Source: Candidatus Eiseniibacteriota bacterium (lineage in GTDB: Bacteria > Eisenbacteria > RBG-16-71-46 > CAIMUX01 > VGJL01). Taken from it: a stretch of DNA of 64,000 bases. A program made the translations under genes and the position numbers. Position 1 is the first letter of the stretch. Each line of letters opens with the position of its first letter. The stretch spans positions 32,001-96,000 of the forward strand of contig JBHGAY010000004.1 of assembly GCA_041946735.1 (NCBI GenBank), given 5' to 3'. The notes beneath the pieces were generated by a model that ran no database searches, was not told the DNA's origin, and saw only the letters and a program-made list of their open reading frames with translations. Shown here in pieces: positions 886 to 14,486 of the stretch.

Positions 886-1923
886 TCATCCTCCCAGGAG
901 ACGAATGCTCGGGAGCGACACGCTCCCCGCAGATCGCTTGCCCGTCTCGACTGCGCGCTGGAACTCTTCCGCCCCTTTCGGCTTCTGCCACACGCTCTGC
1001 CGGATCGTCTGCGCGATCTCCTCGTCGGGCGCGCCACGCCGCAGCGGGCCGCGGAGATCGACGCCGAGCTGGGAGAAGAGGCACAGGCCGAGCCGGCCCG
1101 ACGCGGTCATCCGGATGCGGTTGCAGGCTCCGCAGAACGGGTCCGTCAACGAGGCGATGAAGCCGACGCCGCCGGCACCGCCCGCGAAACGGAAGCTCTC
1201 CGCGACCCGCGCGCCTCGCGCGGTCGCCGGTTCGAGCTTGCGCTCCTCCTCGATCCAGCTACGGACGCGATCGAGCGGAAGGACGAGATCCGGGCGCCAT
1301 GCGGTCCCGCAGAGCGGCATGAACTCGATGAAGCGGACCTCGATCGCGAGACGTTCGGCCATCTCGCAGAACGCGAGGACCTCGGCCCGCTCGAGATCGC
1401 GCATCGCCACGACGTTCACCTTCACGGCGAGCCCACTCGTGAGCGCCGTCTCGATCCCCCGCAGGACGAGGTCGATCTCGTCCCGGCCGGTGATGCGCTC
1501 GAAGCGCTGCCGATCGAGGCTGTCGAGGCTCACGTTCACGGAGTCGAGACCGGCGTCGGCGAGGCGGCGCGCGAGCGCGGAGAGGCGCGCGCCGTTCGTC
1601 GTGAGCGCGAGCGAGGCGATCCCTTCGATGCAGCGAAGGCGCTCGACGAGCGGGACCAGGTCGCGGCGCAGAAGCGGCTCGCCGCCGGTGAGACGGATCT
1701 TCCGGACTCCGAGGCGCGCGAAGATTCGGCATAGCCGCTCGATCTCTTCGGACGAAAGCAGCTCGTCGCGCGGCTGCAGCGCGAAGCCGCTCGCCGGGTG
1801 GCAGTAGGTGCAGCGGAAGTTGCACAAATCGGTCACCGAAACGCGCAGGTAGTCGAGCCGGCGGCCGTGGCGATCCTCGAGGCACGCCGAGCCCGTAGCG
1901 CGTTCCGCCGCATCCGGTCTCAA
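886..1923 (-). CDS. moaA: GTP 3',8-cyclase (molybdenum cofactor biosynthesis)
   Basis: LDYLRVSVTDLCNFRCTYC radical SAM motif, RLTGGEP, C-terminal FCGACNRIR...CL cluster, terminal GG; TTG start at 1923 overlaps the upstream stop (TTGA). Confidence 0.95.
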   Translation of the reverse strand: MRPDAAERATGSACLEDRHGRRLDYLRVSVTDLCNFRCTYCHPASGFALQPRDELLSSEEIERLCRIFARLGVRKIRLTGGEPLLRRDLVPLVERLRCIEGIASLALTTNGARLSALARRLADAGLDSVNVSLDSLDRQRFERITGRDEIDLVLRGIETALTSGLAVKVNVVAMRDLERAEVLAFCEMAERLAIEVRFIEFMPLCGTAWRPDLVLPLDRVRSWIEEERKLEPATARGARVAESFRFAGGAGGVGFIASLTDPFCGACNRIRMTASGRLGLCLFSQLGVDLRGPLRRGAPDEEIAQTIRQSVWQKPKGAEEFQRAVETGKRSAGSVSLPSIRLLGG

Positions 1924-2567
1924 CGTTCCGGCTCCTCCGCCGGCGCGGGCAGCCGGCCGCCGGCCGCGTCGACGACCGCGACGAGAAGCGAGAGGAGGTC
2001 GCGCAGGCATGGATAGGGACAGTCCGCGGCCTTCCCGGCCGCCAGGCCGACCCAGCTCGCGACGTGCCGCTCCAGGTACTCGGATCGAGCGCGCCGGATC
2101 TGCTCGAGACGCTCGGAATCCGTCTCCGCCGCCTCCCTCTCGCATAGATAGCCGAGGAAGTCGAGCTGGTGGCGGAGATGGTCGGAGGTCTCCTCGCTCC
2201 CCGCGGAGAGGCGCAGGCCGAACGCCGCGTAGAAGAGGATATTCTCGTGCAGGATCCGGGGGACCGGATCGCGGCGCAGATAGTGCGATTCGATCAGCGG
2301 GACGTGCGGATGCGGCGCGCCCACCTCGAACGTCTCGATGTATTGCGTCTCGTACTCCCTCGCGGACCGGGGAAGGGGCGCGGGTCCGGACAGACCGAGC
2401 CGGGCCGCGAGATCCGTCCAGGCTCCCCACGTTTCCTTCGATCGCAGGAACTCCCATTGCTCGGCGCCTGGGGGACGGAAGAGGTCGCGGACGAATCGAA
2501 AGGCCGAAGCGAGCGCGCGAGCCTCCTCGCGATCCTGCCCGTCCGTCGCCGGCGGGATGCCGCTCAC
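1920..2567 (-). CDS. TorD/DmsD/NarJ-family molybdoenzyme chaperone
   Basis: VPLIESHY...FYAAFGL...ETSDHLRHQLDFLGYL...YLERHVASW; GTG start overlaps the upstream stop (GTGA). Confidence 0.88.
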   Translation of the reverse strand: MSGIPPATDGQDREEARALASAFRFVRDLFRPPGAEQWEFLRSKETWGAWTDLAARLGLSGPAPLPRSAREYETQYIETFEVGAPHPHVPLIESHYLRRDPVPRILHENILFYAAFGLRLSAGSEETSDHLRHQLDFLGYLCEREAAETDSERLEQIRRARSEYLERHVASWVGLAAGKAADCPYPCLRDLLSLLVAVVDAAGGRLPAPAEEPER

Positions 2568-3319
2568 GGGGCGCCCCCGATCTCGCGCAGCTCGTACCAC
2601 ACGCTGTAGAACTTCAGTCCGTCCCGCTGCTGCTTCTCGCCGTCCCAAACGGCAAAGGCGATGGGCGTCCCGGCGGCGGCCGGCGGGATCTGGAAGACGC
2701 ACTCCCAACCATCGGCCGTGCGTCGGACCGATCCGGGGATCGCTTGCCCCGTGCGGGTCGTCGTCCCGCGGCCGGCCGCGATCAGCCGCTCGAAGCCGCG
2801 CGTCCCGTGCCAGTAGTAGAGGTCGACCGGATGGGCCGCGTCTCCCATCATCAGCGACGGGAAGCTGGCCGCGTCCTGCGCGTTCTGGACGTTCTGCGGG
2901 AACATCACGCAGGCGGCGTCCGCAAAACGCTCGATATCGAGCGAATGCGCCTTGTAGATCGTCGAGTCGCCGGCATCGGCGATCCTTTCCGGGGACCGCG
3001 CACGGCTGTCGGTCGGATCCGCCCACCGCATCCGCACGAAGGTCGCTTCACCATTGGAGAGCAGCGACACCGCGGCGGCGGGACGCGCGCCATCGTCCGG
3101 GGGATCTCCGACGTAGAGCGGCGGCGTGCGATTCAGGGCGACCTGCGTCTCGATCGCCCCCCGCCAGGCCGGCTCCTCTCCGGCGACGAGGCTCGCCGTC
3201 GCGGCGATCGTGCGACCGCACGGGATCGTCGCTTCCGCGGCGGCCCGGCCGGCGACGCCCGCCAAAAGCACGAGGAGCACGAGGAGCACGAATCCGAGAA
3301 GAATGCGCTGCCGCGTCAT
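2564..3319 (-). CDS. Ethylbenzene dehydrogenase gamma-like (EbdC/DOMON-like) heme b subunit
   Basis: Signal peptide; VRMRWADPT, FADAACVMFP, SLMMGD (Met ligand), AFAVWDGEKQQRDGLK (Lys ligand); ATGA overlap with the beta subunit stop. Confidence 0.85.
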   Translation of the reverse strand: MTRQRILLGFVLLVLLVLLAGVAGRAAAEATIPCGRTIAATASLVAGEEPAWRGAIETQVALNRTPPLYVGDPPDDGARPAAAVSLLSNGEATFVRMRWADPTDSRARSPERIADAGDSTIYKAHSLDIERFADAACVMFPQNVQNAQDAASFPSLMMGDAAHPVDLYYWHGTRGFERLIAAGRGTTTRTGQAIPGSVRRTADGWECVFQIPPAAAGTPIAFAVWDGEKQQRDGLKFYSVWYELREIGGAP

Positions 3320-13781: not shown

Positions 13782-13810
13782 ATATTAGGACCCGTTAGTC
13801 CGAAATGCAA
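13782..13810 (-). promoter_or_regulatory. Sigma70-type promoter with embedded inverted repeat
   Basis: Minus strand TTGCAT-N17-TAATAT ending 7 nt before the Rrf2 ATG; spacer holds GGAC-N6-GTCC. Confidence 0.65.
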
Positions 13811-13853
13811 GAGGAGATCGAGTCGGACCCGGGGGCCCGGCGCCGATGCTCCC

Positions 13854-14486
13854 TCAAACAGTCTCGGTCAGATCTTCCCGGCGGTTCACGTTGCGGAGGG
13901 CGCTCGCGACCCGGATTCTCCCGACGAAAGCGGCGGAGAGAAGGGTCGCGCCCACGCTCTCGATCACCCGGTGCATGGACGTTCCTTCGGGTGCCGAGGA
14001 GAACGCCCGTAGGACGGATCGGTGGTACAGGCCGGGGAACGGATGCAGTCGCCCGCCGGGCTCCCCATAGCAGACGACCGGCTCCGTCCGTCCTGCGGCT
14101 GGCCCGGTGCCACCGGCCCGGATCGACGCGAGAAGTGGGCGGAGCACTGCAGAGGTCACTCCGGGCATGTCGACGGCGAGGATGAGCGCCCAGTCGGACG
14201 ATTCGCTTGCAGCATGGGTGAGCGCGACCCTCACCCCCTCCACGGGACCGAGGCCGGGACGCTCACCCGTCAGGACAGGGGCGCGATACCGCCGGAAAGG
14301 CGCCGGATCGGGAGCGACGATCCGCGGATGGATGTTCAACTCCCGCATCGCCCGAAGCGCGAGCGCGAGGAGACTCCTCCCCCGGTGCGTCGCCAGGGCC
14401 TTGTTCGATCCGAACCGCCGCGACGCGCCACCGGCGAGAACGAAGCCGGAGACGCGCTCGTTCCCCTTCGTCCCGGCCCTCCTCAA
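13854..14486 (-). CDS. mobA: Molybdenum cofactor guanylyltransferase
   Basis: VLAGGASRRFGSNKA, GLGPVEG, LAVDMP, HPFPGLY, NVNRREDL. Confidence 0.9.
   Translation of the reverse strand: MRRAGTKGNERVSGFVLAGGASRRFGSNKALATHRGRSLLALALRAMRELNIHPRIVAPDPAPFRRYRAPVLTGERPGLGPVEGVRVALTHAASESSDWALILAVDMPGVTSAVLRPLLASIRAGGTGPAAGRTEPVVCYGEPGGRLHPFPGLYHRSVLRAFSSAPEGTSMHRVIESVGATLLSAAFVGRIRVASALRNVNRREDLTETV

Follow-up and report, generated by a model that had tools for sequence, protein, structure and literature searches.

The locus analysed here raises a question of wiring: why should the genes of a periplasmic enzyme of the nitrate reductase type be joined, in a single series, to those of a Rieske/cytochrome b complex and of a cytoplasmic flavoprotein, and in which direction do electrons flow between them? 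The series lies between positions 886 and 14486 of a 64,000-nucleotide stretch of DNA from a Candidatus Eiseniibacteriota bacterium, referred to below as the window. The answer comes in two parts. A chain leading from quinol through the Rieske/cytochrome b complex and a hexahaem cytochrome c to a periplasmic nitrate reductase (pNar) is likely; the whole scheme, in which quinol oxidation is bifurcated and the second electron goes to NAD+, is a tentative proposal that we rate slightly below an even chance.

The window has a G+C content of about 68%, and for this reason contains many spurious open reading frames; gene calls were made from open reading frames, a Pfam domain search, translations and start codons. 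The Pfam search picks out a coherent gene series, all on the minus strand, from mobA through moaA:

13854-14486, minus strand: mobA, molybdenum cofactor guanylyltransferase-like (PF12804 NTP_transf_3, E 9e-31)
13280-13774, minus strand: rrf2, Rrf2-family regulator (PF02082, E 1.6e-29)
11298-13283, minus strand: NfnB/GltD-like FAD/Fe-S flavoprotein (Pyr_redox_2, Fer4_20, two C-terminal 4Fe-4S motifs)
10846-11313, minus strand: Rieske 2Fe-2S protein (PF00355)
9201-10829, minus strand: fused cytochrome b6/subunit IV-like cytochrome b, 542 amino acids (PF00033, hydropathy)
7577-9166, minus strand: membrane-anchored hexahaem cytochrome c (Pfam, six CxxCH motifs, a transmembrane segment)
4584-7580, minus strand: NarG-like Tat-exported molybdopterin catalytic subunit (PF00384, PF01568, Tat motif RRGFLK)
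3316-4587, minus strand: NarH-type Fe-S subunit (PF13247 Fer4_11, E 3.4e-33)
2564-3319, minus strand: EbdC/NxrC/Orf7-like gamma subunit with a Sec signal (PF09459 EB_dh)
1920-2567, minus strand: NarJ/TorD-family assembly chaperone (PF02613, E 6.5e-15)
886-1923, minus strand: MoaA, radical SAM enzyme of the first step of molybdenum cofactor synthesis (PF04055, PF06463)

The initial annotation had described these genes as co-oriented and mostly joined by stop/start overlaps. All of them are found where it placed them. With the start codons inferred here, the nine junctions between rrf2 and moaA comprise seven overlaps, six of them 4 nt long and one 16 nt, and two gaps, of 16 nt and 34 nt. The stop codon of the hexahaem gene and the start codon of narG share the letters ATGA. 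Gene mobA stands upstream in the same orientation, at 79 nt from rrf2. A promoter and terminator scan of 500-15000 gives no promoter-like site and four terminator-like sites, versus 5.3 expected by chance; in a host at 68% GC, whose promoters may be of another type, such a scan says little. Since the same gene order is found in 12 metagenome contigs, an assembly chimera is ruled out. In addition, a contig of metagenome run X2, from an independent study, spans 3315-7704 with one differing letter, and bridges the junction between the hexahaem gene and narG. This run, labelled as an industrial waste metagenome, contains a strain that is almost the same over 600-14800: six letter differences are listed across the 14.2 kb. 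Parts of the same interval are also present in landfill run X3.

Are the two halves of the operon, the Rieske/cytochrome b half and the NarG half, really meant to work together? A metagenome scan with NarG was used to compare gene orders: of the 433 relatives, 80 were retained, 20 of which have at least 61% NarG identity. Within this subclade the order is invariant, as the synteny check suggested by the initial annotation required of a wired operon: in every one of the 17 loci where over 500 nt of upstream sequence is available, the hexahaem gene directly precedes narG, and all 12 loci with at least 5.5 kb upstream read flavoprotein-Rieske-cytochrome b-hexahaem-NarG-NarH-EbdC-TorD, the independent cases being fewer than 12 (two locus pairs look near-duplicate) and three of the 20 loci not being assessable. 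The closest relative, locus L001 of a Candidatus Eisenbacteria metagenome-assembled genome (MAG), encodes eight proteins in the same order, at 59-78% identity. Further away, among eight relatives at 46-51% NarG identity, the four that can be assessed, with 1.4-7 kb upstream, have no module of flavoprotein, Rieske protein and cytochrome b. An rrf2 homologue adjoins the module at loci L055, L057, L062 and L073; the regulator of the window has three clustered cysteines (C-x6-C-x5-C), and is probably an Fe-S sensor of redox state or nitric oxide.

The host genome (4.89 Mb in 72 contigs, 94.8% complete) bears on the same question. The cytochrome b of the operon is the only one in it. A separate cluster for alternative complex III (ACIII) and a caa3-type oxidase, G000:C6:108000-126000 (L154), encodes c7-like multihaem, ActB-like and ActD proteins and a cytochrome c, directly upstream of an oxidase made of COX2 with a cytochrome c domain, COX1 and COX3; contig C33 carries a second pairing, of a NarH-like gene with COX1. 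The ACIII-caa3 cluster and the pair on C33 serve oxygen. Given that cluster, we reject the idea that the main role of the Rieske/cytochrome b complex is that of a general complex III for oxidases. Because synteny is invariant, because the genome has no other cytochrome b and because oxygen has its own ACIII-caa3 cluster, the complex looks dedicated to nitrate. Together with the ATGA overlap, these observations strongly support the claim, already made in the initial annotation, that the two halves are functionally wired together.

The rest of the respiratory equipment is as follows. The absence of narI and narK from the window extends to the genome: at 94.8% completeness, a search for NarI (PF02665) found nothing, and for NarK nothing scored above the cut-off. 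Neither chlorite dismutase (PF06778) nor NirK was found at the same completeness. For NirS, the only matches are weak and partial ones to the beta-propeller, of at most 30.7 bits, and they were not counted. NrfA is present elsewhere in the genome, with 446 bits. MenD is present and MqnA was not found in the genome, and thus the quinone is probably low-potential menaquinone. Complex I is encoded at two loci or more, and the host is probably a heterotroph.

We now turn to the molybdoenzyme. By its sequence, the alpha subunit is a member of the pNar/PcrA clade of the type II dimethyl sulphoxide (DMSO) reductase family. Among solved structures, it matches Azospira PcrA best (886-890 bits, residues 62-983), then E. 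coli NarG (546 bits), EbdA (395) and Kuenenia NxrA (216). Against annotated plasmids, it has 43-47% full-length identity to haloarchaeal NarG, 46% for narG of Haloferax mediterranei, and 35% to ClrA. The Tat signal RRGFLK occupies residues 23-28 of the product that starts at ATG-7580, and hydropathy gives no transmembrane segment in NarG or NarH.

Two motifs of the alpha subunit, kept in all 118 homologues at 64% identity or more, are informative about the substrate. Motif FYDWYCD contains the Phe and Tyr of the gate and the Asp that binds molybdenum, and aligns with the Asp segment of PcrA. Motif NHYVGQE places a Glu at the column of the gate Trp of PcrA (W461 of the mature protein, W489 of the precursor). 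The available excerpts of PMC8301774 assign the triplet Phe/Tyr/Glu to the NarG of both haloarchaea and bacteria, with the Trp as the distinguishing mark of PcrA. The loop of the FS0 cluster, HSANCTGSCSW (H-x3-C-x3-C), has Asn and Trp as in NarG, whereas PcrA has His at the Trp position. Thus PcrAB of Azospira (4ydd, 5e7o), the closest solved catalytic subunit, shares the Asp ligand and the Phe/Tyr gate but differs at both of these diagnostic residues, and the query scores slightly higher against 5e7o, the Trp-to-Glu mutant. The two enzymes also differ in their third subunit, which is EbdC-like with haem b here; the gamma subunit of perchlorate reductase, PcrC, is a tetrahaem protein.

The Asp and gate motifs, the NarG-like FS0 loop, the identity to Haloferax NarG, the presence of NrfA and the failure to find chlorite dismutase lead us to read the enzyme as a probable periplasmic nitrate reductase, in an organism of the type that carries out dissimilatory nitrate reduction to ammonium (DNRA). 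We reject the reading as a perchlorate reductase, which the best solved match would suggest, on the gate Glu, the FS0 loop and the failure to find chlorite dismutase in the 94.8%-complete genome.

The partners of the alpha subunit are consistent with this assignment. NarH has 15 cysteines in four groups, as expected for three 4Fe-4S clusters and one 3Fe-4S cluster. The C-terminus of NarH (3316-3600, minus strand) is a low-complexity, non-conserved extension, about 90 residues long, which adds four cysteines (388, 399, 402, 408); the match of L001 to NarH ends at residue 383, and the tail may be real or the read-through of a spacer that other loci contain. The gamma subunit has a signal-like hydrophobic segment and is 30% identical to Haloferax Orf7. 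Its Met158 and Lys236, unchanged in all 16 sequences compared, align with the conserved Met-Gly-Asp segment of NxrC and with Lys201 of EbdC (7b04_C, 2ivf_C). In EbdC, the haem is ligated by Met and Lys, and the gamma subunit is probably a periplasmic haem b protein with the same ligation.

The membrane half comprises three proteins. The Rieske protein has a Tat-like RRDFL motif, one N-terminal transmembrane segment and the cluster motifs CTHLGC...CPCHGSRF, which include a Ser/Phe pair; its best solved match is Kuenenia 9rk4 (E 2.6e-22), followed by 9rk3. The Kuenenia Rieske protein Kustd1480, which also has the Ser/Phe pair, was measured at +335 mV (PMC12954380). Cytochrome b is b6-like in its N-terminal half (142 bits), and its hydropathy profile contains eight clear transmembrane segments and a weaker one, below threshold and belonging to the five-helix part, in a 4+5 arrangement. 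Over 15 sequences (L098, L084 and L082 were left out of the 18 rows of the alignment), the haem b ligands His143, His157, His256 and His271, the Qo motif APWY and the segment WRxRKDGG, b6-like and located after helix D, are all invariant. The site of haem cn is lost: CxGG is absent, the Cys35 of b6 is replaced by Ala, and none of the 41 cytochrome b N-termini listed has Cys at this position.

Another invariant residue of cytochrome b (15 of 15) is His74, on the N side before helix A. AlphaFold3 models of the anammox complexes place a novel haem before helix A, with His43 of Kuste4571 proposed as the ligand of an interfacial haem b; His74 may be the counterpart of this residue. At the other end of the protein, the last 20 residues (9201-9260, minus strand; RGPNW.F/YW...WP.H), are nearly invariant in the 15 sequences, and the terminal His542 is fully so. 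From the helix count they would face the periplasm, where they could touch the hexahaem or Rieske protein or supply it with a ligand. The hexahaem cytochrome c itself combines an N-terminal transmembrane segment with four haems of the c7/NrfH-like type and two class-I c domains; it has six CxxCH motifs, as do its counterparts in all 15 related operons linked to pNar.

The flavoprotein has neither signal peptide nor transmembrane segment in its hydropathy profile and is cytoplasmic. Its best solved relatives are the NfnB-like modules 9bov, 9n5u and 8oh5, and NfnI (5jca_L). In a set of 25 sequences from at least five phyla, 16 cysteines are conserved (15 invariant, C72 in at least 90%), as for four Fe-S clusters, and GxGxxG, GGGNVA and the pair Leu348-Glu349 are kept in all 25. 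This Leu-Glu pair is at the end of beta2 in the nucleotide site, where two enzymes that use NADPH, NfnI-L and 4ylf_B, have Tyr-Arg-Arg; the replacement suggests that the flavoprotein prefers NADH. At every module locus examined, its gene is directly upstream of the Rieske or cytochrome b gene, often with a stop/start overlap. An interface prediction with residues 20-661 of the flavoprotein and residues 62-300 of a monomeric, truncated cytochrome b, based on alignments of 25 and 15 rows respectively, gives an ipSAE of 0.00 in both runs, controls not having been run, and counts neither for nor against docking; in the published anammox model, the flavoprotein is docked on a dimer of cytochrome b (PMC12954380).

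The host also encodes, at G000:C71:141940-145113, a 1915-amino-acid open frame that combines an NfnB-like part, 30% identical to the flavoprotein of the operon, with a molybdopterin oxidoreductase domain, and resembles the fused enzymes 9bov and 8oh5.

These parts can be assembled into the following mechanism. The operon would encode a self-contained menaquinol:nitrate oxidoreductase, in which menaquinol is oxidised at the Qo site of a complex made of the Rieske protein, the nine-helix fused cytochrome b and the hexahaem protein. The high-potential electron would go from the Rieske cluster to the hexahaem cytochrome c, to haem b of the gamma subunit, to the Fe-S clusters of NarH and to the molybdenum bis-molybdopterin guanine dinucleotide cofactor of NarG; nitrate would be reduced to nitrite in the periplasm, and NrfA would then convert nitrite to ammonium. 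The low-potential electron would cross the membrane via haems bL and bH and, instead of reducing a quinone at a Qi site, would enter the Fe-S clusters and FAD of the flavoprotein, possibly via an extra haem held by His74. The flavoprotein would reduce NAD+. With MKH2 and MK standing for menaquinol and menaquinone, the net reaction would be 2 MKH2 + NO3- + NAD+ -> 2 MK + NO2- + NADH.

Is such a reaction reasonable? Menaquinol has a potential near -70 mV, NAD+ of -320 mV and nitrate of about +420 mV. With menaquinol at about -70 mV and a Rieske protein of the high-potential type, the potential of the second electron would be low enough to reduce NAD+; by our arithmetic, nitrate would pay for NAD+ reduction even after the cost of crossing the membrane potential. 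Quinol bifurcation is thus plausible: it is thermodynamically sensible and fits the sequence features. That the combination of a low-potential quinone and a high-potential Rieske protein has energetics allowing NAD(P)+ reduction was argued by Hauser et al. (PMC12954380). The pairing of the module with three other high-potential periplasmic N-oxide enzymes, described below, also fits the need for a strong electron sink. That there is a single complex, that nitrate is its substrate, that the flavoprotein docks on cytochrome b and that electrons flow toward NAD+ we infer from the sequences, and several points weigh against bifurcation. The cytochrome b lacks the CxGG site for haem cn, which is retained in the anammox complexes (PMC5600118, in excerpt), and the electron path would consequently differ from the published anammox model. 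There is no obvious need for making NADH from quinol, the host being a probable heterotroph with at least two complex I loci. NADH reoxidised via complex I would amount, by our arithmetic, to about 8-10 charges per nitrate, near the thermodynamic limit. Finally, the sequence may be compatible with a working Qi site.

The opposite direction of flow, which the initial annotation also allowed, is a serious rival that we rate as unlikely. The flavoprotein would oxidise NADH and its Fe-S chain would feed haem bH or a quinone site on the N side, so that the complex makes its own quinol; an ordinary Q-cycle to nitrate would follow, and a whole NADH:nitrate chain, bypassing complex I, would be held in one assembly. 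Every step of this path is downhill, a probable heterotroph has a surplus of NADH, the invariant Leu-Glu suggests NADH as the partner, and the b6-like WRxRKDGG after helix D is kept. However, complex I, present at two or more loci, would conserve more energy, and the haem cn site is lost at every locus examined; furthermore, a high-potential-type Rieske protein combined with menaquinone predicts b haems of very low potential, which suits the export of electrons (PMC12954380). We favour bifurcation toward NAD+, as in the scheme of Kartal and Hauser.

Two other readings change the role of one component. It is quite improbable that the complex is an ordinary Q-cycle complex III dedicated to pNar, with a flavoprotein that stays off the main electron path, whether it senses redox state, helps in maturation or repair, or is an independent soluble enzyme under common regulation: haloarchaeal Rieske/cytochrome b-Nar clusters do work without a flavoprotein, but here the flavoprotein gene is found directly upstream of Rieske or cytochrome b at every module locus examined, in at least five phyla, and the Kuenenia subunits co-migrate (PMC12954380, citing de Almeida 2016). 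It is very improbable that the substrate is (per)chlorate, selenate or another oxyanion, or that the enzyme runs as a nitrite oxidoreductase (NXR). Such a reading can invoke the 890 bits to PcrA, the chlorate and perchlorate reduction also carried out by pNar enzymes (PMC8301774) and the sister operons that join the same module to an NXR-type enzyme; it has to face the Glu at the gate Trp column in 118 of 118 clade members, the NarG-like FS0 loop, an identity to ClrA of only 35%, a chlorite dismutase that was not found in the 94.8%-complete genome and an NrfA ready for the product nitrite.

The initial annotation implied that the operon was one of a kind, and in this respect it has to be revised: the operon is widespread, and elsewhere its module is joined to an NXR-type enzyme, a Nap-like enzyme or NirS. 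A survey of 201 genomes sampled from the phylum, with 18 regions fetched around the best matches, identifies 15 genomes in which a full-length flavoprotein is followed by Rieske protein and cytochrome b. The module is followed by a pNar enzyme in two genomes, with one more on a cut contig; by NxrA of the Kuenenia/Nitrospira type (896 bits to 7b04_B), NxrB and an EB_dh protein in four genomes, with one more on a cut contig; and by a Nap-like enzyme, whose best match is NapA at 214 bits, together with NapG/H-like ferredoxins, in one genome, and also in a Binatia MAG. In six genomes there is no molybdoenzyme near the module. In Ca. Desulfolinea nitratireducens (L010:5053-12217), genes for the flavoprotein, b6, subunit IV and Rieske protein are followed by one for a 783-amino-acid fusion of cytochrome c with a cytochrome cd1 NirS; two MFS transporters and an FmdE-like protein precede that module. 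In a Nitrospinota MAG, an NxrC-like gene precedes the module. The number of haems of the multihaem protein tracks the partner: six with pNar, seven with NXR and ten with the Nap-like enzyme.

A tree of 25 flavoproteins (L002, L081, L082, L085, L086, L090, L095 and others, partial or near-duplicate, were left out) groups the window and L001 with the modules linked to Nap-like enzymes, with support 100/99, and the remaining pNar-linked modules with the NXR-linked ones, with support 95/91. The pNar label needs at least two changes on this tree: the terminal enzyme has therefore been exchanged on a module backbone. Every module locus from the genome collection, and every named flavoprotein homologue, comes from a MAG, and no cultured carrier was seen. 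Many contigs from soil and freshwater show this design, which is uncharacterised; the literature searched contains no account of a flavoprotein-Rieske/cytochrome b-multihaem-NarG operon.

Two precedents, both invoked in the initial annotation, are found in the literature. The closer one is that of anammox bacteria, where Rieske/cytochrome b operons with NAD(P) oxidoreductase and multihaem subunits (Kuste4569-4574 and Kustd1480-1485), the subject of a hypothesis of Kartal 2013, are described by Hauser et al. 2025 (PMC12954380). Both systems have a Rieske protein, the one here carrying the same Ser/Phe pair as Kustd1480, a cytochrome b of the b6-like kind whose subunit IV part has five helices, a cytochrome c with six or eight haems and, on the cytoplasmic side, an FAD flavoprotein with four Fe-S clusters. 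In both, these genes stand together with that of an N-oxide reductase on the periplasmic side, and both hosts probably use menaquinone; for the flavoprotein, cytochrome b and hexahaem protein, this likeness is one of descriptions and not of alignment to the Kuenenia proteins. The differences are that b6 and subunit IV are fused here, that the CxGG motif is absent, that the terminal enzyme is a pNarGH-haem b molybdoenzyme instead of an octahaem protein related to hydroxylamine oxidoreductase (HAO), and that the host is a probable heterotroph outside Planctomycetota.

The second precedent is haloarchaeal, and is supported by PMC3509893 and PMC4683180, in the excerpts available, and by an annotated locus. 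The pHM300 cluster of Haloferax mediterranei has the same order, namely Rieske (narB), cytochrome b (narC), Tat-exported NarG, NarH, Orf7 (an EbdC-like haem b protein) and TorD/narJ, and its NarG and Orf7, at the 46% and 30% identity given above, include the same Phe/Tyr/Glu gate; a chain from quinol through Rieske/cytochrome b, haem b and NarH to NarG was proposed for it (PMC3509893). However, this cluster has neither flavoprotein nor multihaem cytochrome c. Its cytochrome b (28% over 374 amino acids) and Rieske protein (40% over 72) are family-level relatives and not orthologues: the Haloferax Rieske motif CPCHFGKF is without the Ser, and the Kuenenia Rieske protein and b6 match the operon better.

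Looser likenesses can be found elsewhere. Thauera selenatis SerABC is a periplasmic molybdoenzyme of type II whose gamma subunit holds haem b, and its electrons were proposed to come from a Rieske/cytochrome b complex via c-type cytochromes. The model of nitrate-dependent anaerobic methane oxidation by Methanoperedens proposes the same feed for an enzyme of this kind (PMC4683180, PMC5244752). In contrast to the operon studied here, neither system involves a flavoprotein linked to NAD, and in both the genes of the bc complex lie away from those of the reductase. The bifurcating enzymes NfnAB and StnABC share the NfnB-like module of FAD and two [4Fe-4S] clusters, but the operon has no NfnA-like partner, its flavoprotein has Leu-Glu for the Tyr-Arg-Arg of the NADPH site, and the segment with the RCLDC cysteines comes after the FAD domain and not before, an extra ferredoxin domain with two [4Fe-4S] clusters then following. 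Finally, the available excerpts of Dibrova et al. 2017 (PMC5600118) state that cytochromes b of subfamily G occur alongside NAD(P)-binding Fe-S oxidoreductases in numerous further cases, and that the long cytochromes b of clade G' occur in large conserved operons of unknown function.

Upstream of the operon, the window encodes two proteins with related ends, both on the minus strand. A protein with a PNGase F C-terminal domain and an FlgD-Ig-like C-terminal domain lies at 14483-16105, its stop overlapping the start of mobA at 14483-14486. At 16197-19733, a 1178-amino-acid right-handed beta-helix/PMP-repeat protein, which is probably a secreted surface protein, ends with a domain of the same FlgD-Ig type.

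What would these results mean for nitrate respiration? Up to now, the discussion of Rieske/cytochrome b complexes linked to NAD(P) has been confined almost entirely to anammox bacteria, where their function is itself a hypothesis, supported by the potentials of the Rieske proteins and by AlphaFold3 models (PMC12954380). One of the two Kuenenia complexes even lacks a known high-potential acceptor; here, the gene cluster itself points to the probable acceptor, a periplasmic nitrate reductase. If the proposal is true, the anammox bifurcation hypothesis gains a general test bed with a simple and defined acceptor. A broader conjecture, possible in our view but rather doubtful, is that ordinary bacteria of soil and sediment contain a widespread modular class of Rieske/cytochrome b complexes that have given up haem cn at Qi, send the low-potential electron to an NAD-linked flavoprotein and are hard-wired to periplasmic N-oxide reductases, the sink (pNar, NXR-type, Nap-like or NirS) being set operon by operon.

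There is also a consequence for the reading of genomes. The available part of the Ca. Hinthialibacter paper has relatives annotated with NarGH and NrfAH, and makes no mention of a Rieske protein; MAG surveys that record only "NarGH" would miss the electron input path of a common nitrate-reducing guild of the DNRA type. If bifurcation does occur, nitrate respiration in these organisms would be a quinol-based bifurcation that regenerates NADH, half of the electrons returning via complex I, and the charge yield per nitrate would be above that of any characterised nitrate respiratory chain. The energy yield of their nitrate respiration may thus depart from textbook values.

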